Origin: a virus
DNA length: 64,000 nt
Direction: 5' to 3' (one strand)
Virus record (IMG/VR): IMGVR_UViG_3300020183_000001
Coordinates: 18,634 to 82,633 of that record
In this document: one piece after another, positions 7,925 to 55,556 of the stretch
How positions within the stretch are numbered: the first letter of the stretch is position 1
Layout: each line of letters opens with the position of its first letter
Notes under the pieces: generated by a model
What the model was told of the DNA's origin: nothing
Database searches by the model: none
The model's input: the letters and a program-made list of their open reading frames with translations, nothing else
Made by a program: the position numbers and the translations under genes

Positions 7925-8000
7925 TGGTACCTGAGGTGAGATTTGAACTCACGCTGGAACGATTTTAAGTCGTTTGCCTCTTCCGCTGGGCTACTCAGGC
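7925..8000 (-). tRNA. trnL: tRNA-Leu(UAA), short variable loop, encoded CCA
   Basis: Acceptor GCCTGAG/CTCAGGT, anticodon arm AACGA-CTTAAAA-TCGTT, T-arm GTGAG-TTCAAAT-CTCAC, ACCA end; 76 nt. Confidence 0.93.
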
Positions 8001-13752: not shown

Positions 13753-13848
13753 AGTAGTGAGATGAATTGAAGGAACAGTGTAGTGAGAATGGTCAGGATA
13801 ACGATGATGTGTAGTATTACATCATCATTATATTGTTGAGGCTGAGTG

Positions 13849-13986
13849 TTAGTCATCAGTTAGTTCATCAGTTGGGTTAGGTGGTTGCATCTCTTCTTGC
13901 ATAGCTTGTTCCTGCTGGTACGCAAGGTCAGACCATGCGTCAAGAAGATCTGCATTGTAGTTCTCATCGAGTTGTTGAGTTGTCAT
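13849..13986 (-). CDS. small acidic protein (45 aa)
   Basis: MTTQQLDENYNADLLDAW..., downstream of family A copy 4. Confidence 0.55.
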   Translation of the reverse strand: MTTQQLDENYNADLLDAWSDLAYQQEQAMQEEMQPPNPTDELTDD

Positions 13987-14005
13987 CGAATGAGTTGATA
14001 AAGGA

Positions 14006-14034
14006 CTGAGCAGTTTAACGTCATACTCAGGACG
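14006..14034 (-). repeat. family A pseudoknot motif, copy 4
   Basis: CGTCCTGAGTATGACGTTAAACTGCTCAG. Confidence 0.85.
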
Positions 14035-14083
14035 GATATCAAGAATATGAATAAACGACGTTTATCAGAATTCCAAGTAATAG

Positions 14084-14560
14084 CTAGTCAAATGGTTTAA
14101 AATCTGTATCTTTCAAGAGAGAGTCAATGTGTGCAACATCGCATTCTCTCATGTATTCACTTAAGTTTTCTGATGGATCAATCTCATAGTCATCAGTTTG
14201 ATTCTCAACAACTTCGCATCCAATGTCTTCGAGTTGATCAACGTAGTTATCCCAGCTATTGGCATTGCCATAGACATGGGCATAACGCCCGGTCTGGTCA
14301 ACGACAAGTGCTACATAAGTCATGGGTTGAGCCTCAGGTAGTGTGAAGGGTCTTTGTTCTGCAGCCATTAACTTTGCAGTAATGGCACGCAAATCGTGCC
14401 TAGATAGTTCTCCATTTGGTCTCCACTTCAACGCGGTATTTGCAAATGTTGTAGTAGGTAAGACCATTGGAATAACAGATAGGTTAATTAGTTTACCGTG
14501 GTTCGACCAAGGTTTGTTGGCATGACCACTGTAGTAAAGACTTTGTAAAGTCGGTACCAA
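14084..14560 (-). CDS. hypothetical protein (start uncertain)
   Basis: ORF up to 158 aa with acidic C-terminal half. Confidence 0.55.
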   Translation of the reverse strand: MVPTLQSLYYSGHANKPWSNHGKLINLSVIPMVLPTTTFANTALKWRPNGELSRHDLRAITAKLMAAEQRPFTLPEAQPMTYVALVVDQTGRYAHVYGNANSWDNYVDQLEDIGCEVVENQTDDYEIDPSENLSEYMRECDVAHIDSLLKDTDFKPFD

Positions 14561-14711
14561 GCATAGCGCCTGTTACGACAAAAGCGATACCGATAACAAT
14601 GGTTGCAGATAAAAAGTTACAAAGGTAACGTCCTGCTCTACTGCTGTGGTACTCAGGGTACACATCAGTGTGAATAAATTGTTTAGGTCCAAGTTTAGTA
14701 ATCTGTTTCAT
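14493..14711 (-). CDS. small membrane protein
   Basis: MKQITKLG..., one hydrophobic helix (FLSATIVIGIAFVVTGAMLG). Confidence 0.55.
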   Translation of the reverse strand: MKQITKLGPKQFIHTDVYPEYHSSRAGRYLCNFLSATIVIGIAFVVTGAMLGTDFTKSLLQWSCQQTLVEPR

Positions 14712-14787
14712 TGGAGAAAGTCCTGTGTAGTAGGAATCAACCTTCGGTTGATGGACGGAGTAATACAACTGTACTACGTTGCAATAG

Positions 14788-14855
14788 GCAGGAGAGGAAG
14801 AAGATCTCCTGCAGAAAACCCACTCATCAATGATGAGCAGGGTTAAGTGCAAGAA
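14788..14855 (-). repeat. family C X-hairpin-Y-Z motif, copy 1
   Basis: TTCTTGCA..CCC-hairpin-GGG TTTTC TGCAGGAG..CTCCTGC. Confidence 0.7.
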
Positions 14856-14870
14856 TCAGTTAGTCAAGAG

Positions 14871-15263
14871 TCAGGCCGCAGCAGTTGCAGCCTTCTTCTT
14901 ACTAGCAGCCTTCGTTCCTTCCTCAGCTTTGGGCTGAGGCTTGGAACCAAAGGCATAATCAGTCACTTTCAGTTGAAACTCTGGTTGCTTGAGCGGCATG
15001 AGCTCTTCATCTTTCATATAGAAAGCACGGATGCCTTGAATTTTACCAGACACCGTGAGCTCTTGGCCTACAACCAGATTGTCATTGGTATAAGCAGTAA
15101 GCAAACCATTGCTGTTGAAGAATTTGATTGTGACCACAGCATCTTTAGAGATACGGTGGTACAAAGTAACAACCAAACAGTCACGCTCATCTTCCGTTTT
15201 GATAACGATAAGACTTGCAATGCGACCAACAACAGTAAACGTTTGCAGATCAGCGTAAGTCAT
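14871..15263 (-). CDS. second SSB/OB-fold-like protein
   Basis: FTVVGRI...LVVGQELTVSGKI OB-fold pattern; basic Ala/Lys tail; start MTYADLQ. Confidence 0.65.
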   Translation of the reverse strand: MTYADLQTFTVVGRIASLIVIKTEDERDCLVVTLYHRISKDAVVTIKFFNSNGLLTAYTNDNLVVGQELTVSGKIQGIRAFYMKDEELMPLKQPEFQLKVTDYAFGSKPQPKAEEGTKAASKKKAATAAA

Positions 15264-15293
15264 AAAATTAAATTGAGTTGAGTTGATAAGCAA

Positions 15294-15345
15294 GCAGAGA
15301 TGAACTCTGCAGAAACCCATCGAAATCGATGGGAATATGCAAAGA
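15294..15345 (-). repeat. family C motif, copy 2
   Basis: TCTTTGCA TATT CCCATCGATTTCGATGGG TTTC TGCAGAG..CTCTGC. Confidence 0.7.
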
Positions 15346-15528
15346 TCACCAGTCGTAAACACGAATGGCTTTAAGGTTAACAGGAGAGATATCCAGTAGT
15401 TCAGCACCAGCAAGCAATGCTTCTGTTTGTGTGCGAGCCATTAGCTCAATAACAAACTCACTACTAAACACTTTCCAAATAACCAAGGGACGTTCCACGA
15501 TTAGTCCACTAGATGTTCTTGTTCCCAT
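15346..15528 (-). CDS. small hypothetical protein
   Basis: 60 aa; stop immediately followed by a family C motif. Confidence 0.5.
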   Translation of the reverse strand: MGTRTSSGLIVERPLVIWKVFSSEFVIELMARTQTEALLAGAELLDISPVNLKAIRVYDW

Positions 15529-15743
15529 TTAAGAAGTGCACGGTTGAGATCAACCTTCTTCTCAAGGACAACACAGAACGGGACCAAGTCTTGGAACTGT
15601 ACCAAGCCATCTTGCCATTGATAAAAGATCTCCAGTGCAGCCTGGCGCTGACTTTCAATCTCCTGATCAATGATAGGAGTGTCTCGACGTGCAAGAAGAC
15701 GAGCTTCTTGGGTAAGGAGACGTTCAACAGCTTTAGGAGTCAT
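15501..15743 (-). CDS. hypothetical protein
   Basis: 80 aa with AACTC-repeat leader. Confidence 0.65.
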   Translation of the reverse strand: MTPKAVERLLTQEARLLARRDTPIIDQEIESQRQAALEIFYQWQDGLVQFQDLVPFCVVLEKKVDLNRALLKWEQEHLVD

Positions 15744-15772
15744 AGCGAAACCAAGTGGAGTTGAGTTGAGTT

Positions 15773-15828
15773 GTGCAGATGTAAAGTCTGCAGAAACCCA
15801 TCTTGTTACAGATGGGAATTTGTAGACA
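15773..15828 (-). repeat. family C motif, copy 3
   Basis: TGTCTACA AATT CCCATCTGTAACAAGATGGG TTTC TGCAGAC..TCTGCAC. Confidence 0.7.
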
Positions 15829-16095
15829 TCACATCATTTGTTCGATGCGTTCTTGCTCCATTGTGGTGGAATAGTCGTAATACTCTTGCATCTCCATCAG
15901 CATGTCTTTCATGCTGGTAGGAATTGAACCAAGAGTACGTACGTCGCGATCAATCCACTCTTGCCATGTGGCACCAGTGTCTAGATCATACATGTTCCAC
16001 AACTTCTCAAAGTGAAGCTGTGTAGTTTCAACGTTGTACCAAGTAACGCGATACCGTCCTTCGTCAGGACGGTAGGTAAGTGTTGGGGTAGCCAT
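15829..16095 (-). CDS. hypothetical protein
   Basis: 88 aa. Confidence 0.65.
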   Translation of the reverse strand: MATPTLTYRPDEGRYRVTWYNVETTQLHFEKLWNMYDLDTGATWQEWIDRDVRTLGSIPTSMKDMLMEMQEYYDYSTTMEQERIEQMM

Positions 16096-16098
16096 AAG

Positions 16099-16284
16099 TC
16101 AATTAGTTTTGTAACCGTTAGAAGCACACCAATTCATATGAATTTGATGCGCAGGCTTAGGCCAGTCATGTTGAAGGCATTGTTTAGCAGTTGCTTCGTG
16201 CAACAAACGTGCACCAATGCAACTAGCAATACCTCCACCAATAACAACGGTAGCAATGTAAATAACCAATTGATTCTTAGTCAT
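16099..16284 (-). CDS. small membrane protein
   Basis: MTKNQLVIYIATVVIGGG.. TM helix followed by C...HDWP...H..WC. Confidence 0.6.
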   Translation of the reverse strand: MTKNQLVIYIATVVIGGGIASCIGARLLHEATAKQCLQHDWPKPAHQIHMNWCASNGYKTN

Positions 16285-16501
16285 GAGTTGATGTGCAGTT
16301 GACAATCGTTAGGCATAATAAGTGCAGCCGCACGAATGCGGTATTCACTTATCTTCTGTCCAAGCTGCTGTTTAGATGGCAGCTTAGCAGTTTCTACTGC
16401 AGATGCTGTTAGTTTCAGCAATGCAGCAGTATTCTTTCGAATGTGTAGTGCAGTCATAAGTTGAATTGAGTTAAGCCACTCTCAGTGAGTGGCAATAGTT
16501 A

Positions 16502-16537
16502 GGCAGGGGTTTGCACCCTGCCACCCGCTTGTACGGA
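16502..16537 (-). repeat. family D double hairpin, copy 1
   Basis: TCCGTACAAGCGGG T GGCAGGG-TGCAAAC-CCCTGCC directly after TAA. Confidence 0.75.
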
Positions 16538-16756
16538 TTAACCGTAGTTCTCGGGAAGCTCTACAAGCTCTGCAAGAACTTGGTGTTGCAGCTCGCGTTC
16601 GCCAGCAATCTTCAGTCCCCATGCGGCAATCTGAAGAGCTTGCTCACGGCTTAGTAGCTGCGAGTGGCCTGACTCCATCCAAAACTGGATGAGATCGTAG
16701 GCCGTAGCCGCTAGTTCTTCCCTGGTAGGAAGTACAGCAGCAGTAGTGTTGGTCAC
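16538..16756 (-). CDS. hypothetical protein (GTG start)
   Basis: GGAG RBS upstream of GTG 16756; 72 aa. Confidence 0.65.
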   Translation of the reverse strand: MTNTTAAVLPTREELAATAYDLIQFWMESGHSQLLSREQALQIAAWGLKIAGERELQHQVLAELVELPENYG

Positions 16757-16769
16757 GGTATTCTCCGTG

Positions 16770-16799
16770 TGTGCGGTACCCATCTCCGCTGAGGGTAAT
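16770..16799 (-). repeat. family E pseudoknot, copy 1
   Basis: ATTACCCTCAGCGGAGATGGGTACCGCACA; S1 TACCC/GGGTA, S2 GCGG/CCGC. Confidence 0.7.
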
Positions 16800-16803
16800 A
16801 ACT

Positions 16804-16840
16804 GGGACAGGGTTTGCACCTGTCCTCCCGCTTTAACGGA
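16804..16840 (-). repeat. family D double hairpin, copy 2
   Basis: TCCGTTAAAGCGGG A GGACAGG-TGCAAAC-CCTGTCC directly after TGA. Confidence 0.75.
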
Positions 16841-16981
16841 TCAGTTAAGAGACCTAAACTTAATTAAAGCCTCACGAATTGCTTCTTGTACCCAGTGCTT
16901 TGGTACTGGATACAGCTGCCATTGCTTCCACGTCTCAAAAACAAGACGCCGTTCGACAGCTGAAAGATGTTTGTAGCTCAC
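16841..16981 (-). CDS. small hypothetical protein (46 aa, GTG start)
   Basis: AGGAG RBS; MSYKHLSAVERRLVFETW... Confidence 0.6.
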   Translation of the reverse strand: MSYKHLSAVERRLVFETWKQWQLYPVPKHWVQEAIREALIKFRSLN

Positions 16982-16994
16982 AGGAATCTCCTGT

Positions 16995-17024
16995 TGTGCG
17001 GTACCCATTTCCGCTGGGGGTAAT
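16995..17024 (-). repeat. family E pseudoknot, copy 2
   Basis: ATTACCCCCAGCGGAAATGGGTACCGCACA (28/30 identical to copy 1; both changes are in loops). Confidence 0.7.
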
Positions 17025-17053
17025 GCTACGGTTTAACGTCCATCAGCTAGACG
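17024..17053 (-). repeat. family A pseudoknot, divergent copy 5
   Basis: CGTCTAGCTGATGGACGTTAAACCGTAGCA; S1 and GTTAAAC conserved, S2 rewritten. Confidence 0.6.
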
Positions 17054-17134
17054 TGAATCGCTGAGATCCCTTGCTACGACTGGGTTCTAAGAACGACAGT
17101 CATTCCTGAACCGCTACCTCGCGGGAGGTTCCCC

Positions 17135-17167
17135 ATATCCACATACTTTTCCACAGGGTGTGGAAAA
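17135..17167. promoter_or_regulatory. cluster of three DnaA-box-like 9-mers
   Basis: ATATCCACA, TTTTCCACA, TGTGGAAAA (the last two inverted, 3 bp apart). Confidence 0.55.
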
Positions 17168-17202
17168 CGTAGTCAGATGTGTGGGTTCCCTGACATGCGG
17201 TG

Positions 17203-17263
17203 TGCAGGTTAGTGAGAGCTGCATAAACCCCTGCCGTAAAGACGACAGGGGAAGAGGCAACTA
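17203..17263 (-). repeat. family C motif, copy 4
   Basis: TAGTTGC CTCTT CCCCTG..CAGGGG TTTA TGCAGCT..CCTGCA. Confidence 0.6.
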
Positions 17264-17545
17264 TCAGATCTTGTGAATCACAACGATCTTCAACCCGTCC
17301 TTGTCTTGGTAAATGCGCATGCTCAGCTTATCGCTTTGCATGTCACATACCACTTGGAACAAGTACTGAGGCTGGCATACCTGACGCAGATCGCTATAAA
17401 CAAAGTCGGCGGAGCCAAGCTCCTCCAACATCTGGTAAGCAAATTCCACATAGTTGCGGAAAAGCTCAGCATTCTGTTGCGTCGGACGCTCACCAACTTG
17501 CTGGCGCCAGTCGTGTTGCCAACGCTTAGCCTGTTTCGTTTGCAT
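17264..17545 (-). CDS. first gene of the early arm, hypothetical
   Basis: 93-aa ATG ORF. Confidence 0.65.
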   Translation of the reverse strand: MQTKQAKRWQHDWRQQVGERPTQQNAELFRNYVEFAYQMLEELGSADFVYSDLRQVCQPQYLFQVVCDMQSDKLSMRIYQDKDGLKIVVIHKI

Positions 17546-17799
17546 TGAATTAAACGCGATGGATTACCTGCGTTGCACGGATGCGCAGCCCCCGTTACAC
17601 TTATATACCTACACACCTATTCTTTTTTTCTACCCACAACTCACTACGTATATGTATGTGGAGAACACTCAGACAATTATTACCCCAAAAGGGTTAAAAA
17701 GTTGGTACCCTCATCTGTAATAATGAGTATTTATACTTAAAAAAATATATAAAATACCCATTTGTACACCAAAAGTGCACGTAGCCCAAACTTTTACAC

Positions 17800-17830
17800 A
17801 AAAATGCCGGGGTTATTTATGCCCCGGCTT
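17800..17830 (-). terminator. intrinsic terminator
   Basis: GCCGGGG-loop-CCCCGGC followed by a T-run, downstream of the ORF ending at 17853. Confidence 0.65.
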
Positions 17831-17852
17831 GGTTAATAAACTTTACTTATGT

Positions 17853-18065
17853 TTATTTTTGTTTTTTACTCATGTAAGCTTTGGTTGCACCCACTGCTTT
17901 TCTAAATGCTTCTTCATCTGGAAGCCCATATGCCAATTCTTTTTTTGCTTCGGTTACAAAATCACGCACTTCTAGCGAATCGCGTCCAGTTTTAGCCATA
18001 TCCATGGCTTTTTCTTTAATTTTCTCCAGGGCTTCTACCCGTTGTTGGCGCACACCTGCGTCCAT
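17853..18065 (-). CDS. small helical hypothetical protein
   Basis: Probable start MDAGVRQQR; divergent from the late arm. Confidence 0.6.
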   Translation of the reverse strand: MDAGVRQQRVEALEKIKEKAMDMAKTGRDSLEVRDFVTEAKKELAYGLPDEEAFRKAVGATKAYMSKKQK

Positions 18066-18166
18066 TTCACACATTACTTCTGTATTTAAATAATATAACG
18101 TACGTACGCTCCAGATTTCTAAACAATAGAATGTAAAAAGATTAAAAGTCGGTTTAAAAGTAATAA

Positions 18167-21100
18167 ATGGCGCTTTCTCAAGCTGATTTCTACGCTTACA
18201 GTCGTGCCACTGGTGCTCCTGTCCCAGAAGATCCCAGGGAACGGGCAGAGATGGCGCCCGAAGTACTGGCATTCCGCCGTAATCAGCTCAAAGCACCTGA
18301 ACAACAGGGTCCAGACCCCTTATCTGTAGGAATTGGGGTAGGTTTGGCTCTTGCTGGAGCAGGTGGAGCATATTTTGGTGCGCGTCGGTTGATGCGTGCG
18401 CCAAAACAAGCTGCAAACGCAGGCGTTCGTGTAGCAGATATTAAAGAAGCAGTTGCGCGAACTCCTGATGTAACAAAAGTTTCTAAAACTTACACACCTG
18501 ACCCTTCTAAAGTTGCAACACCGTCAACTGTTGCAGTAGATATACCAGATCCCTGGAGCGATGCAGAAACAAAATTTACACCACGTTCTTTTTTAGAAGA
18601 GCGAGGTTCAGTTGCTCCACGTGTAGACGTTATTGATAATGCCGATCTTACTTCTAAACAAAAACAGTTAGGTCCTTCACTAACTGATCAAACATACGAC
18701 GCAGTTGAGTCGGGTATTAATCAAGAAGAACAACGAATTGACGTTAAACTTCAACGTCATACAGGTGTTGATGTTCCAGAAGTAGATATTCCTCAAGTAG
18801 AGGATACTTTTGAAGCATATGGTTTATTACCACCTGTCCAACGTACTTTAACAAAAGAAGAAAAAGAAGCAAAGATATTTGCACGTTTAGAAACAGAAGC
18901 ATTAAAACTTGGCAAGACAACGCATTCAGCAGCTAATCCCTTTGGACCAGAAGGAAAACGCATTCCCCCTGGGCCATTGCTATATCCTTCTCAGATTCCC
19001 GCACAAGAAGGTCAAACGGTTGCAGGTGTTTCAAGCCCTACTCGTGAGTTTTTAAGTGCATATGCACAAGGTGATCCCCGCGTACAAGATGTTGTTCGAC
19101 GTGAAAATGTTACAGGGTTTGAACGGATTAAAACTTATGGCGGCGTAAAAGGAGCTTCTTTATTAGAAGGTGATGTTTTTGATCCTTTATCTGGTGAGTT
19201 AATTTCTCAAGGAGAGCAAATTTCTGGTACTGGAAAAACTAAACAGGTACTTAATCCTGCCTGGACCGAGGCGTATAAAACATATTGGGAACGTCGCGCA
19301 GCAGAACTTCCGCATACCCTTGATGATTATGAGGCACGTAAAGCTGTTGGTAAATTAAATTATCAATTACCTGCAGAAGAACAAACTGAAAACAATAATG
19401 CACAAATGTTTGCAAAGTGGGATAAACAAACATCAGGAGCTTTGCAAGAATTGTATGCTGAAACAGTTGGTGATACGCCTCAATACATTACCGAGATTGT
19501 AGAACCCAAAACAAGTTTTGCGGGAACCGAAACCCAATATCGTGGACAAGCTGGAACAACAGGCGAAACAACTGGTGCACCTGTGCCCGTATTAAATCCA
19601 AAAGGGATTGTCTTTGGTGCTCGAAAAAAAGAAGGACCATTTGTTTCTGTCGAAGAAAAGGCTCTTGCTCGCGCGGCGCAAGACCCCTCTTACGCTTCAG
19701 GAAAAGTACTTCGCTTTAAAGGAGAAGGCGGTTCAACCAAACTTGATGTAATGCCTCTTAGTTACGATACTGAAGGCGATGTTCTTCTACCTTCTTCTGT
19801 TTCAGGCCAACAAGTTAGGGGTAAAGCAAAAGTAACGCGCACAGCCCTAGTTCCTTTACAAAAAGCTGTTTTAGTAAAAGACGCAAGAACGGGACAACAA
19901 AAAACACAACTTGTTAATTTTTCTGTTGATTTAATGGCTCCTGTTGGTACGCGCACGGGTATAGATGAATCAGGCAAAGAAATTGCAAAAACAGTAACTT
20001 TACAAGAAGCTGTTAATGATTTACGTAATTATCACGGAAATGATTACGCATCTTTAAATCGTGATGTAGATGCATTGTTAAAACGTACTCATAATGCTTA
20101 TGACGTTCCAGTAATGACACGAAGTGCGTTTGATAAATATGACGAAGGACGCAACGAGTTTATTCGTATGCTTTCTGGTAGTCAATATGAAGCAAAAGAA
20201 TATGGGTTTTTAACATCTGTAGAAGGACAAAAATTACCCTACACAGGACCTATTGGTCCAGGTCAAAAAGGAAATAGAGCCGAAAACGTAGCAAATGCAC
20301 GTTTAATGCTTTCACAAGCAGGTGTTCCTTTGGATAAACTCTCTGATTATTTACCTGATCTAGAAGAGTTGGGAGAAACTCCTCGTGTTGAAACAACATC
20401 TAAACGTGACCTTGGAATTCCCAAGCCAGATGTTATGTCAACTGGTACAGATTTGGGTATTCTTACCAGTACATATGAACGTATTTCTCCCAGGATGGGA
20501 GGTGCTGTCACAAGTCAATTAAGAGATTTAATTTCTAAAGGTGCCAAAGTTGAAAATATTGATGGTAATGTAATTTATTCAACTGAACGAGGTAAGGTTT
20601 CTTATCCAGAAAATCAATTAATTCAAACTTTAAAATCAGAAAACCAAGACGCACCTTCTATTGCTGCTTTAGTTGGCAGATCTATTGCTACAGAAAAAAC
20701 TGATCCTTTAGCTATTCGCAAAGAACCAAGCGTTCTTGCACAAGAGCGAGGTAGTGAAACTGGTTATTATTACGACGAAGCTGGTCAACGGCGTAAAGAG
20801 CCTGTTACAACTCCCTGGGGCTCTTTTACAGGAGCAGCTCGTTTTGCTGCTGGTCCAGCTTCCGTTGCTTCCATGGGAACGTATCCACAAGGAGGCAGTC
20901 GGGTACGCGTAAAAACTTCGCCTACAGATTTAAGTCAACTTCAAGAACGTAATCAATTTGCTTTAACTGCTAACCTTACTCCTGGTGGAACAGTTCGTCA
21001 AGGTGCAATAAACCTGGGCGGCGGCCTTGGTTCAATTGCAGCAGGTATTGAATCGTTACCTAGTGAATCGGCAACGATTGAGCGCTATGGTGTAACCGGC

Positions 21101-51498: not shown

Positions 51499-53325
51499 GT
51501 GGCAAATAGAAGGATTACCGAACTGCCTTCAATTCAGGGCGGGAGCTTAGCAGAGCAAGATCTGTTAACTCTCGTCCGTGTTTTTGAAGTTGACCCGACG
51601 TTAAAAAATAAGAAAATTACTCTTTCAGAGTTTAGTAATTACCTTAACACAAAATATTTAACGCTTAGTGGCGGGACCATGACTGGTCCGCTCACAATCA
51701 ACGCACCTTTAACTGTTTCTGGCCTTACCACGCTTAATGATGTAACGGTAAATGGCGTTGCAAACTTCAGTGGTGTTTACGTTCAAACCACTCTCAACGT
51801 CACCGGAACATTAAGCGGTACCACAATTACTGGTACAACAGTAAACGCAACAAACGCAACGTTCCAAAATCTGACCGCCAGTGGCCACAACATTCAGGGA
51901 GATCTGACCGTCTCTGGCACCCTGTCTGCGCTTGGTAATTCGTTCTTCTCTTCTGGCGTAACGGTTACCGGCACCCTGACAGGGACCACGGTCACTGGTA
52001 CGACTGCCAACTTCTCGTCTGGTGTCTTTACTGGACAGATTTCTGGTGCTGCAGTAACAGGAAATACGGCCAATTTTACAAGTGTCACAGGCGCGACTGG
52101 GGTTTTTACTTCGCTCCTGTCAGGTCTTCTCATCACAGGAAACACCGGTCAATTCTCAAATATTACTGGTGTATCAGGCGTATTTACTGATCGCATCTCC
52201 GGAACAACCGTTACAGGAAACACGGGTCAGTTCTCAAATATCACCGGAATCTCTGGTGTTTTTACTGATCATATCTCCGGGCAAACCATTACAGGGAATA
52301 CGGTCCTTGCTTCTACAGTTACTGGGATCTCTGGCGTCTTTACCGACCAAATCTCTGGGGCAACCATTACTGGTACCAACGTCAATGCAACTACAGGTAC
52401 ATTTGCAACCCTTGTTACCAGTGGTCATACAGTTCAAAACAACTTAACTGTCTCGGGTAATCTTTCGGTTCTTGGTTCAGGGTTCTTTAGTTCAGGTGTT
52501 TCGGTCACTGGAACTTTAAGTGGAACCACAGTTACTGGTACAACAGCAAACTTTGCAACCGGTGTTTTCACCACACTAGCTTCTGGTGCCACAGTAAGGG
52601 GTACCGTCGTTTCAGGTAATACGGTTACCGGTGGAACGGGACAATTCACCACACTTACTGGTGGTACGGCAGGGTTTACAACAGTTACCGGAACCACTGT
52701 TACTGGTACAACAGCTAACTTTGTAACTGTTTCTGGTACCACTGCTACAGGAGGAACAGCTAATTTTGTTTCCGGTGTCTTTACAACGCAAGTCTCTGGT
52801 GCAACCGTCACCGGGGATATCGGACGCTTTACGCAACTATCCGGAATTTCCGGAGTGTTCACTGCACAAGTTTCAGGTGCAACCATTACAGGTAACGTTG
52901 TTAACGCAACGTCTGGTTTCTTTGAATTCTTAACTGCAGTTAACCAGGCATTTGGAGGCAACCTAACTTTCTCAGGAGATACTTTTACTCTTGGCTCTGG
53001 TTTTATCAGTTCTGGATTAAGTGTTACAGGAACTGTTTCAGGTCAGACTTTTACAGGTACAACTGCTCAATTCACGTCAATTACTGGTAGTACGGCAGGA
53101 TTTACCACTGTCACTGGCACAACCGTAACCGGTGTTACCGCTAATTTTGTCACAGTTTCTGGTACTACTGTCACAGGTAATACAGGGCTGTTTACCAATA
53201 TCACTGGAAGCACATTACATGTAACCACACCTTCTGGTGCTACTGCAGCAATTGTGTGCTCTGGTGTAGTGTCTGGTAGTACCAGTGGATTTATAATCCA
53301 AGGTCCATTAATTATTCTGCCCTGA
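51499..53325 (+). CDS. tail fibre protein with Thr/Gly-rich repeats
   Basis: MANRRITELP N-terminus, L.GGTMTG.L, about 10-aa repeats SGxTVTGxTxxF. Confidence 0.8.
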   Translation: MANRRITELPSIQGGSLAEQDLLTLVRVFEVDPTLKNKKITLSEFSNYLNTKYLTLSGGTMTGPLTINAPLTVSGLTTLNDVTVNGVANFSGVYVQTTLNVTGTLSGTTITGTTVNATNATFQNLTASGHNIQGDLTVSGTLSALGNSFFSSGVTVTGTLTGTTVTGTTANFSSGVFTGQISGAAVTGNTANFTSVTGATGVFTSLLSGLLITGNTGQFSNITGVSGVFTDRISGTTVTGNTGQFSNITGISGVFTDHISGQTITGNTVLASTVTGISGVFTDQISGATITGTNVNATTGTFATLVTSGHTVQNNLTVSGNLSVLGSGFFSSGVSVTGTLSGTTVTGTTANFATGVFTTLASGATVRGTVVSGNTVTGGTGQFTTLTGGTAGFTTVTGTTVTGTTANFVTVSGTTATGGTANFVSGVFTTQVSGATVTGDIGRFTQLSGISGVFTAQVSGATITGNVVNATSGFFEFLTAVNQAFGGNLTFSGDTFTLGSGFISSGLSVTGTVSGQTFTGTTAQFTSITGSTAGFTTVTGTTVTGVTANFVTVSGTTVTGNTGLFTNITGSTLHVTTPSGATAAIVCSGVVSGSTSGFIIQGPLIILP

Positions 53326-53357
53326 GTTACAATTAAAGAAAGATTTTGTAGAGACAA

Positions 53358-55556
53358 ATGCCGTACGGTCAAATCAAGGTAGATGAGATTACATTTACCA
53401 ATGCAGGCGTAGATCAAACTATCTCTGTTTCTGGTGTTGTTGGTTCTATTTCTGGAAGCATTACAGCAACTGGAACCATCTCCGGTGATGTGATTCGCGG
53501 GGGAACACTTGTTTCTGGCGCCACTGTCACTGGTACGGCAGGCCAGTTTGGTACCATCACCGGTAATACGGCAGCATTTACAACTGTTACAGGCACAACC
53601 GTCACTGGAACTACTGCAAACTTTGTAACTGTTTCTGGTACCACAGTTACCGGGGCGACAGCTCAATTCACAACACTTACTGGTGGTACTGCTGGTTTTA
53701 CTACAATTACAGGTACTACGATCACAGGAACAACACTTACTGTTGCTTCCGGTACTTTTAGCGGCAACTCTACTGCCGCAGCTTTCATCCCTACTGGTAG
53801 CACCGTCCCCACAAATGGAGTTTATCTACCTGCCGCCAACACCGTAGGGGTAGCAACTGGTGGGTCTGGGAGGTTGTTTGTTAATAGCAGTGGGAATATC
53901 GGAATCAATACAACCCCTTCTTCAATTGGCACAAATGTCACGACTCTTGAAATTAAGGGGGCGTCTACCACCAGATCCGGCGGCCTAAGAATTTCTTCAA
54001 GTGATAGTTCCGTAAAAGGTGCTTTTTATATCTATGACGGCGCCGGTGTTTTAGGCACGGAAACGGCAACACCGCTCGACCTTTATACAAACAACGCCCC
54101 TAGGCTCAGAATCACCTCCGCTGGCCTTGTAGGCATAGGGACTTCAAGCCCAGTGTTCTTAACAGATATTCTTTCGGGCACCGCTAACACTGGTGCCAAC
54201 GTCAATAATCCATCGCAACTTAGTGTTACCGGACCTAATAAATCATTAACAGGCGGTGGAGCAACGGTTTTTGTAAACAGCAATTCTGACCTTGCTATTG
54301 ACACTGGCGGCAGTATTGCGCTTTCTGGACGCAATACAACTAGCTCTACAAGTAGCATGGTTTGGGGCGTCGTAAAGGGCGCAAAAGAAAACGCTACCTC
54401 TGCAAATACTGCTGGTTATTTAGCATTTGCTTCTCAAAACCATAACGCTGGTGCGCTTGTTGAGGCAATGCGTATTGACTCGTCACAGCGAGTAGGGATT
54501 GGCACTACGAGTCCTACCGATACAAACGGGTTTGGAAACTGCATCGACATTCGTAGTTCCACTGGCGCTGCCATTTACCTTCGGGACAGTGATGACACCA
54601 CAAATGATACTTTTGTCATCGGCAGAGACAATTCAGATTCTTATTTGATTTCAAATTCTGGCAACCTGCTATTTTCAAATAACGGCAGCGAACGCGCCCG
54701 CATCGACTCCAGCGGACGCCTGTTAGTTGGCACGTCTACTGCGACTAACAACTTGCGCCTGGACGCAAAACTCGCTGTTGTAAGCACAGGCAGCGGAAAT
54801 CTTGGTGGCGTAAACCTTACAAACTATGGCGGAACCGCGGGGGGCGCAGCTTCTTTCATTGATTTCAATAGATCAAGGGGAACAACTGATGGCTCGTTAA
54901 CGAGCGTTGCATCAGGCGATACTCTTGGTTATTTAGTTTGGCGTGGCGCTACGGGAAGTGGATTTAACCACTTTGCTCAAATAACAGCAGAAGTTGATGG
55001 AACACCTGGAAACAATGACGCTCCAGGCCGCCTAGTGTTCAGCACTACCGCCGACGGGGCGAGTTCTCCGACGGAGCGGATGAGGATAAATAACGCAGGC
55101 GCCGTCTTTTTTCCTTCAGTTAGCACCACTGCATCAGCAGCTAACGCTTTCCTGAATAGTGGCAGCTCTCCCGCCAACCAGCTTCTCCGGTCCACATCTT
55201 CGCTTCGTTACAAAACTGACATCGAAGATCTTGAAGAAGAGCGCTCTGCCTCGATCCTCGATTTCCGCCCCGTCTGGTATCGCTCTACGGCAGAGGCAGA
55301 TCGCAGTGACTGGTCTTGGTACGGCCTCATCGCCGAAGAAGTAGCTGAGATCGAGCCCCGGCTGGTTCACTGGACCTACCTTGACGACGCTTATGAAGAA
55401 GTCGATGGGGAAAAACAGCTCAAGCCCGATGCGGAAATGGTGCCCGACGGTGTTCAATACGACCGCTTGACGGTGCTTCTACTGGATGTTGTGAAGCGGC
55501 AACAACAGGCCATCGAAACCCTTGAGGCCAAAGTAACAGCCCTTGAAAGCCAGTAA
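53358..55556 (+). CDS. tail fibre with C-terminal intramolecular chaperone (Peptidase S74)
   Basis: VGIGT.SP / ER.RIDSSG repeats; SSLRYKTDI...YGLIAEEV...Y.RL..LL..VK coiled coil. Confidence 0.9.
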   Translation: MPYGQIKVDEITFTNAGVDQTISVSGVVGSISGSITATGTISGDVIRGGTLVSGATVTGTAGQFGTITGNTAAFTTVTGTTVTGTTANFVTVSGTTVTGATAQFTTLTGGTAGFTTITGTTITGTTLTVASGTFSGNSTAAAFIPTGSTVPTNGVYLPAANTVGVATGGSGRLFVNSSGNIGINTTPSSIGTNVTTLEIKGASTTRSGGLRISSSDSSVKGAFYIYDGAGVLGTETATPLDLYTNNAPRLRITSAGLVGIGTSSPVFLTDILSGTANTGANVNNPSQLSVTGPNKSLTGGGATVFVNSNSDLAIDTGGSIALSGRNTTSSTSSMVWGVVKGAKENATSANTAGYLAFASQNHNAGALVEAMRIDSSQRVGIGTTSPTDTNGFGNCIDIRSSTGAAIYLRDSDDTTNDTFVIGRDNSDSYLISNSGNLLFSNNGSERARIDSSGRLLVGTSTATNNLRLDAKLAVVSTGSGNLGGVNLTNYGGTAGGAASFIDFNRSRGTTDGSLTSVASGDTLGYLVWRGATGSGFNHFAQITAEVDGTPGNNDAPGRLVFSTTADGASSPTERMRINNAGAVFFPSVSTTASAANAFLNSGSSPANQLLRSTSSLRYKTDIEDLEEERSASILDFRPVWYRSTAEADRSDWSWYGLIAEEVAEIEPRLVHWTYLDDAYEEVDGEKQLKPDAEMVPDGVQYDRLTVLLLDVVKRQQQAIETLEAKVTALESQ

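Follow-up and report, generated by a model that had tools for sequence, protein, structure and literature searches.

The subject of this analysis is a repeated RNA element encoded on the minus strand of a 64,000-nucleotide (nt) stretch of viral DNA, bases 18634–82633 of IMG/VR record IMGVR_UViG_3300020183_000001 (hereafter, the window), which carries four copies of it between small genes. The element contains three short boxes, X and Y on either side of a central hairpin and Z further downstream, such that Y can pair either with X (fold A) or with Z (fold B). Both helices exist in ~90 copies of the element; they exclude each other, both show compensatory changes, and they are sense-strand-specific. 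The family is uncatalogued, and is conserved at gene junctions in S-EIV1-like freshwater cyanophages. The reading favoured here, to which a rough probability of 0.45 is given, is that of a bistable junction module, in which a ribosome at the upstream stop codon would flip fold A to fold B, the likely output being processing or stability of the messenger RNA (mRNA) and not the unmasking of a start codon.

Two competing helices

Relatives were found with a gapped DNA pattern, which returned 54 stretches in IMG/VR, most of them plainly the same element; this was far more productive than using the 130-amino-acid (aa) protein encoded beside copy 1 as query, which led to only one locus. From 69 parsed pattern matches, eight were dropped as chance (in L016, L017, L018, L026 (two), L028, L035 and L047) and three more for lack of sequence anchors (L022:7398, L027:1159 and L040:2178), leaving 58 distinct elements. 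Two covariance models were built: R1, comprising the hairpin and Y:Z, from 17 sequences of equal Y–Z geometry, and R2, comprising a stop:UCA pairing, X:Y and the hairpin, from 56 sequences. Both were searched in 41 sources, from which L002–L004 (the virus's own genome), L054 (the same contig as L005), the seven loci with the eight chance matches, and eight loci with duplicate matches had been excluded. At E ≤ 1e-5 there were 95 matches to R1 and 93 to R2, giving 92 and 89 distinct rows, which include variants invisible to the DNA pattern and one copy in the cultured phage S-EIVl.

Three alignments were used. A1 (MAFFT) holds 56 sequences, namely the 58 without L015:3447, L036:398 and L030:5257 but with window copy 3, identical to L030:5257, added; A5 was fitted to R1, and includes one reverse-strand match (L046:4720-4802) and one incomplete match (L025:9396); A6 was fitted to R2. 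The Y-to-Z region was aligned through R1, the MAFFT version being unused as it left-aligned the pieces and put Z out of register.

Anchoring was first done by sequence alone, X being taken as the UGCA-type box that precedes the spacer and Z as the first CUG[CU] downstream of Y. Two variable positions of X:Y are canonical in 56/58 and 55/58 elements, with three to four Watson–Crick types each, and two variable positions of Y:Z in 57/58 and 46/58. When Y was dealt among elements, canonical X:Y pairs fell from 174/232 to a mean of 129.8 (maximum of 2000 shuffles, 147), and canonical Y:Z pairs from 177/232 to 136.4 (maximum, 155). On A1, to which no structure was fitted, 94.5% of the fold A cells are paired versus 80.7% after shuffling, with 0/500 shuffles as high and 35–46% when the partner is slid, and RNAalifold predicted fold A unaided from the same alignment. 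The corresponding values are 94.6% versus 80.3% (0/500; slid, 38–46%) for fold A on A6, and 91.9% versus 73.7% (0/500; slid, 31–51%) for fold B on A5.

Individual pairs change on both sides. In fold A (A6), pair 9/118 is UA 46, GC 20, CG 13 and AU 3 times, and pair 10/116 is CG 30, UG 25, UA 16 and GC 13 times; in fold B (A5), the Y:Z pair 120/146 is AU 56, GC 14, CG 10 and UA 3 times, pair 119/150 is GC 59, AU 12 and CG 7 times, and pair 115/154 is GC 69, GU 15 and AU 7 times. The model-based alignments also expose changes within the UGCA boxes, which are otherwise fixed: in five copies (L032:1239, L048:5313, L048:4989, L014:4247 and L025:9396) a G-to-A change at position Y2 is accompanied by C-to-U in X, and in all four complete ones by C-to-U in Z too, L025:9396 ending before Z. 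About ten distinct Y cores occur, each with a fitting X and Z. X often has U opposite G where Z has C, and in some copies Y:Z extends to 8–11 base pairs (bp) where X:Y ends at 7; since Y:Z thus exceeds the X:Y register, Z is not a mere duplicate of X. G.U pairs are in large excess over A.C (lower stem, 83 versus 8; Y:Z, 20 versus 4), and the pairing therefore works on the transcribed strand only, as sense-strand RNA. At the family level this pattern is far beyond chance. The reading in an initial annotation, made from the window's letters, would have been refuted had only one of the two helices been conserved in homologues; both are, with compensatory changes.

The four copies of the window

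On the RNA strand the four copies share one order: a stop triplet, 0–1 nt, X, a 4–5-nt spacer, the hairpin, UUU(U)C or UUUA, Y, a loop, and Z. The spacer is G-free pyrimidine, the hairpin has the form CCC...GGG, Y begins UGCAG and Z ends CUGC(A), after which come a G-poor leader and the next ATG. The initial annotation had described this layout, and each of the four copies was confirmed on the minus strand where it placed them. The X/Y pairs it quoted also proved right (UUCUUGCA/UGCAGGAG, CUUUGCA/UGCAGAG, GUCUACA/UGCAGAC with one A.C mismatch, and AGUUGC/GCAGCU), as did its view that Y can pair with either neighbour, Y:Z being possible over 8, 6, 6 and 5 bp in copies 1, 2, 3 and 4. Its placing of X directly after a TGA in three copies was nearly so: copies 2–4 do adjoin a TGA, but X starts 1 nt later. 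The features, given with the flanking open reading frames (ORFs), the model scores and the z value of RNA folding, are as follows.

14782–14862, minus: copy 1, whole element, 130-aa ORF/72-aa ORF junction; R2 56.0 bits, R1 49.8 bits; z -4.77
14856–14858, minus: copy 1, TGA touching X, a second in-frame TGA downstream of the real stop at 14871–14873
14848–14855, minus: copy 1, X (UUCUUGCA)
14817–14844, minus: copy 1, central hairpin (AACCCUG...GGGUU)
14805–14813, minus: copy 1, Y (UGCAGGAGA)
14788–14795, minus: copy 1, Z (UCUCCUGC)
15288–15352, minus: copy 2, whole element, 60-aa ORF (stop 15346–15348)/130-aa ORF (ATG 15263); R2 59.9 bits; z -6.06
15338–15344, minus: copy 2, X (CUUUGCA)
15316–15333, minus: copy 2, central hairpin (CCCAUCG AUUU CGAUGGG)
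15305–15311, minus: copy 2, Y (UGCAGAG)
15294–15299, minus: copy 2, Z (CUCUGC)
15769–15835, minus: copy 3, whole element, 88-aa ORF (stop 15829–15831)/80-aa ORF (ATG 15743); R2 60.5 bits; z -6.17
15821–15827, minus: copy 3, X (GUCUACA; one A.C mismatch to Y)
15797–15816, minus: copy 3, central hairpin
15786–15792, minus: copy 3, Y (UGCAGAC)
15774–15779, minus: copy 3, Z (UCUGCA)
17198–17270, minus: copy 4, whole element, after the 93-aa ORF (stop 17264–17266); R2 54.2 bits, R1 58.3 bits; z -4.82
17257–17262, minus: copy 4, X (AGUUGC)
17228–17251, minus: copy 4, central hairpin (CCCCUGUCGUC UUUA CGGCAGGGG)
17217–17223, minus: copy 4, Y (UGCAGCU), with UUUA just before
17203–17207, minus: copy 4, Z (CUGCA)

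The core GGGTTTHTGCAG, with at most one mismatch, matches the window four times, always on the minus strand, against a mean of 1.06 in shuffled sequences, 1/100 of which reach four; the whole 82.6-kb genome has just these four copies. Folding of the copies as RNA gave z values of -4.8 to -6.2, equalled by 0/200 shuffles, with X:Y in the minimum-free-energy fold of three copies and Y:Z in that of copy 1.

Shape and energetics of the folds

Elements are 65–80 nt long. Fold A consists of a stop:UCA/UUA pairing, a 1x1 mismatch, the 7-bp X:Y helix, a symmetric internal loop and the variable apical hairpin, and its stem measures 21–46 nt per strand from stop to apical loop (median 25; 58 elements). 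The internal loop is 3–4 x 3–4 and pyrimidine, most often CUUA or CUUU opposite UUUC; G is found at 2/353 nt on its 5' side and 0/349 nt on its 3' side, which reads UUUC in 62/89 copies. From the sequences, its two sides would face each other as U.U, C.C and C.U mismatches. Sequences of the loop and boxes are strongly conserved while the surrounding stems are variable, and the hairpin is free to vary, with 42 cores among the 58 elements, some of them with G-rich 5' arms. In fold B the apical hairpin is kept and Y:Z forms a second small hairpin right 3' of UUUC, from which it begins 0–1 nt away; Y and Z are 3–12 nt apart in most copies.

The mean energy is -28.1 kcal/mol for fold A and -24.2 kcal/mol for fold B, fold A being lower in 56/58 elements. 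Fold A, more stable by ~4 kcal/mol, is the ground state.

A stop codon in the stem base

At the base of fold A, the GA of UGA, and usually its U too, pairs with UCA/UUA in the Y–Z loop, past the 1x1 mismatch; UAA stops accompany UUA. The G of the stop is paired in 89/89 cells (GC 62, GU 19, AU 7, CG 1), and a TGA or TAA triplet, in any frame, is at the stop position in 84/88 copies. The initial annotation had put X within the footprint of a terminating ribosome, and this is borne out in most copies: the distance from the end of the upstream ORF to the 7-nt X is exactly 1 nt in 60/88 distinct copies, 0–9 nt in 72/88, and 0–20 nt in 82/88. In window copy 1 the upstream ORF does not end at the TGA beside X but 15 nt further upstream, at 14871–14873, its stop being 16 nt from X.

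Two related observations were made among the relatives. In L005:5385-5420, a relative of copy 1, a TAA...TGA arrangement occupies the equivalent place, so that the element-proximal TGA is kept though non-working. In L015:2930-2994 and other relatives, TGA triplets 4 nt apart occur just before X (TGAtTGAtTGAt), giving stops in three frames, as expected for a module that must terminate whichever ORF joins it. A bacterial selenocysteine insertion sequence (SECIS) or other stop-codon readthrough signal was considered and rejected: the in-frame run after UGA ranges from 0 to 189 codons with no preferred length (54/58 elements with a stop triplet).

A proposed ribosome-driven flip

At rest, the junction would be the long imperfect hairpin of fold A, starting from the upstream stop codon. 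A ribosome at the stop would unzip the lower stem (the stop:UCA pairs and most of X:Y), because both stop and X are in its way; Y, once freed, could then be captured by Z to give fold B. Without ribosomes X would re-invade and fold A be restored, as fold A is ~4 kcal/mol more stable, so that the junction would report translation of the upstream cistron. Such a ribosome-driven flip is the likeliest of the reasons considered for the retention of Z.

As to output, the toggle may set how the junction is displayed to nucleases. In one state they would meet a closed duplex of two turns with a weak pyrimidine patch, shaped like an RNase III substrate, and in the other two hairpins with single strands on either side. 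Cutting within the pyrimidine loop would leave an upstream piece ending in a 3' hairpin and a downstream piece starting with the Y:Z hairpin as a 5' cap. This nuclease-access output is speculative. A narrower version, a stop-anchored translation sensor of a previously undescribed kind, in which the flip by the first ribosome would either commit the junction to endonucleolytic separation or shield it from this, is possible but rather doubtful.

Unmasking of the next ribosome binding site does not seem to be how the toggle acts. The next start lies 18–31 nt past Z in most copies, in a leader of 35% C, 33% A and 6% G; no segment able to pair with Z was found in these leaders, and the predicted unpaired probability from -18 to +6 around the next ATG is 0.61 versus 0.63 between the enforced folds (49 elements). 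Translation-coupled refolding, as the initial annotation proposed it, therefore survives in part: the two states are coupled to translation by geometry, and an RNase III-like stem fits in size and shape, but gating of downstream initiation is unsupported. Leaders (window 15264–15293 and 15744–15773, and relatives) often contain CAACUCAAC-type repeats, and no Shine–Dalgarno sequence was seen in them.

Several points weigh against a ribosome-driven flip. Fold B is near-unpopulated at equilibrium (pYZ ≤ 0.05 in 52/58 elements), and a kinetic or external trigger would therefore be needed. The real stop is 13–46 nt upstream in 10/88 copies, window copy 1 among them, and in three more the frame rule set the stop inside the element; Z is kept in all of these, which fits a ribosome-independent role for fold B. 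The footprint argument is a general one, taken from the position of the ribosome's helicase and mRNA entry site, a ribosome with a stop in its A site covering roughly ten further nucleotides. As regards a nuclease output, no RNase III gene was found in the phage. On the side of the covariation, the shuffle controls ignore relatedness, A5 and A6 were each fitted to the structure counted on them, and the elements are mosaic, so some covariation may have been inherited as whole modules and not as independent events, which are then fewer than the cells counted.

Alternative explanations

The strongest rival, a serious one though it is held to be improbable, is cutting and refolding with no role for the ribosome. 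Fold A would be the substrate of a host RNase III-type endonuclease, a nick in the pyrimidine loop would separate the cistrons, and fold B would form only after the nick, as a 5'-terminal hairpin protecting the downstream fragment. The rod of 21–46 nt per strand (median 25) with its central symmetric internal loop is compatible with this, as are the position between cistrons of an early operon, resembling that of the phage T7 sites, the start of Y:Z 0–1 nt after UUUC, and the retention of Z where the real stop is too far upstream for a ribosome to reach X. The proposal also agrees with the substrate rules for RNase III in PMC1540722, and a gene for the enzyme is present in the Synechococcus elongatus control genome. 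It leaves unexplained why a stop codon is in the stem base (84/88) and is the real stop in 60/88, and the phage is without an RNase III gene of its own; moreover, the loop is symmetric and pyrimidine-only, unlike the asymmetric loops of T7.

That the element is an operator, whose G-free loop and UGCA boxes are read by a phage or host RNA-binding protein with the alternative pairing tuning the binding, is unlikely. Strong conservation of loop and boxes amid variable stems would suit such a site, and the ten neighbouring early proteins have no assigned function, but no candidate protein is known, and the two folds together with the stop codon already account for the conserved residues.

Still less likely is a leaky intrinsic terminator or insulator, with X, Y and Z as accessories. 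A consensus scan flags copy 1, one of the four in the window, as terminator-like, and a GC-rich hairpin is present, with GGG followed by UUU(U)C in most copies. However, five or more U in the 8 nt after the hairpin are found in only 4/89 copies, exactly four being the number in 71/89, and some variants, such as CCUC-AACAGG, are without a U run. Partial termination would also leave the covariation of X and Z with Y unexplained, Y being transcribed after the termination decision.

Classical translational coupling, in which a structure masking the downstream ribosome binding site is opened by upstream translation, is very unlikely. A ribosome melting an intercistronic helix is the logic of the RNA-unfolding model, as outlined in PMC12548453, and the stop at the stem base would suit it, but the region around the next ATG is predicted to be equally unpaired in both folds and the start lies well past Z in a G-poor leader that holds no partner for it.

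A DNA-level recombination cassette without RNA function, whose boxes serve as cross-over points for early-gene shuffling, is the least probable of the alternatives and can scarcely be credited. The mosaic make-up of the elements speaks for it, and PeSLs of T4-type phages are described, in PMC4122927, as repeated intergenic stem-loop cassettes linked to gene shuffling. Against this, the excess of G.U over A.C and the compensation in two overlapping helices point to RNA, and there is no promoter-like site within the elements; gene shuffling at the modules may be a side effect rather than the function.

Three other candidates were rejected: a promoter, as the elements contain no -35/-10 pair, none of the four promoter-like sites in 13800–18300 lying inside one; a triple helix, whose strand polarity would be wrong (by reasoning alone); and a miniature inverted-repeat transposable element (MITE) or target-site duplication, which would leave Y unexplained.

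Comparison with known systems

The early RNase III sites of T7, named R0.3 to R1.3, likewise recur as structured elements between the cistrons of an early polycistronic phage mRNA. They too are imperfect hairpins, about two helical turns long and interrupted by an internal loop, the comparison being one of shape and not of sequence. The present element differs in its symmetric, pyrimidine-only loop, its stop codon at the stem base, and its cyanobacterial host. In addition, Z is here a dedicated second partner for the 3' arm, which the T7 sites are not known to have. In PMC1540722, RNase III substrates are described as spanning about two helical turns, with internal loops that confine cleavage to a single strand and leave behind a protective 3' hairpin.

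The arrangement of three successive segments, the middle one pairing with either neighbour to give mutually exclusive hairpins, is shared with attenuators. Those of the trp type, in leader peptides, use 1:2, 2:3 and 3:4 alternative hairpins, with the position of the ribosome deciding between them. The present element is unlike them in following full-length genes within an operon and not lying in a leader, and in having no fourth segment, terminator U run or start-site mask after Z; no consistent U run after Z was found in the element sequences examined.

Coupling by RNA unfolding, for which PMC12548453 gives MS2 coat–lysis, f1 genes VII–IX and rpmI–rplT as examples, is alike in that an intercistronic helix is disrupted by a ribosome as it completes the upstream gene, as is proposed here. 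It is unlike in that the helix here excludes the downstream start region, the predicted accessibility of which is unchanged between folds. The PeSLs resemble the element, going by PMC4122927, as repeated intergenic stem-loop modules in a variable early region, mosaic before unrelated small genes; that source defines a PeSL as promoter plus terminator, the promoter being an early one of sigma-70 type, whereas the elements here are without a promoter-like site and their conserved features are RNA pairings. We know of no other system that combines a stop codon at the base of the stem, a spare partner for its 3' arm, and repeated deployment between cistrons of full length.

If both folds are used, the element would be a compact natural device that makes what happens to a polycistronic mRNA depend on translation of the gene before, and dozens of uncultured lake cyanophages would reuse it 3–4 times in each genome. 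The element would then be a new family among the few ribosome-sensing RNA switches, and would show how phages of cyanobacteria, which to our knowledge lack Rho, organise early gene expression. Should the more doubtful sensor version hold, this whole cyanophage lineage would time and dose its early proteins through mRNA processing that translation triggers at interchangeable junction modules. S-EIVl is in culture and has one copy, in which the element is directly testable, and the mutually exclusive, compensation-backed helices would serve as a clean test for tools designed to detect alternative RNA structures.

Distribution and specificity

The number of copies per genome is 3–4 in three estimated-complete records (G000, G002 and G003), three in a contig estimated as 66% complete, and one in S-EIVl, at KJ410740 42654–42721 on the minus strand; in each record all copies are on one strand, spaced 1.1–2.5 kb apart. 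Cellular loci with the same DNA pattern score at best 22.9 bits with R2 (80 of at least 120 loci scored) versus 30–74 bits in phage loci, and these cellular matches are chance. At the gathering threshold of Rfam 15 the sole match in the window is a tRNA and no element was matched, while an Rfam E-value search of 14700–17350 gave three chance-level matches (E 1.2–2), none on an element. A search of the literature, the S-EIV1 genome paper and supplements not included, found no description of the element.

The elements are mosaic in composition, the 58 combining 42 hairpin cores with 31 downstream gene starts, and one core is found with three Y types before five different genes. Within one genome, L005:4586-4652 and L005:4912-4980 are different copies with identical hairpin cores, and identical cores also occur with different X/Y/Z types before unrelated genes, which points to exchange of parts between elements.

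Genomic setting

The source record is an 82,633-bp virus with direct terminal repeats, estimated complete. Its closest named relative is Synechococcus phage S-EIVl, from an arctic lake, with ~75% identity in patches across the region, and the DNA runs containing the window are labelled as lake-water, freshwater or freshwater-sediment metagenomes; a search for RNA runs covering 14000–17600 returned none. Going by sequence resemblance, the virus is an S-EIV1-like freshwater cyanophage with an 82.6-kb genome.

The four elements lie within a leftward series of small ORFs running from 17545 to ~14000, and sit at cistron junctions of an early polycistronic mRNA. None of the ten ORFs adjoining the elements was matched in Pfam or PHROGs, which leaves the label of the 130-aa protein as 'SSB-like' (single-stranded DNA-binding) unsupported. 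No match to phage single-subunit RNA polymerase (PF00940) was obtained in the phage, nor in the control genomes of the same search, and no sigma-70 region 4 was found in the phage.

The window contains other features. After copy 4, on the minus strand, ~190 nt (17010–17195) are without a convincing ORF; a CCUGUGGAAAA-like motif recurs there, and the sequence may represent a small RNA or a promoter/leader. This stretch is largely conserved at L005:2990-3190, though the L005 contig is without copy 4 and the 93-aa gene. Two further repeated junction modules (repeat families D10 and D17) occur on the minus strand at 16458–16537 and 16785–16840: one has a UCCGU..GCGGG hairpin and a 7-bp stem with a UGCAAAC loop, immediately after stop codons, and the other, UACCC..GGGUA, overlaps the ATG in two genes, both starting MGTA. 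A tRNA-Leu gene (anticodon TAA) lies within the early arm at 7925–8000, on the minus strand. In a plus-strand region, at 51800–53800, long in-frame tandem repeats (families D1 and D2) are found in what is probably a fibre-like structural gene.

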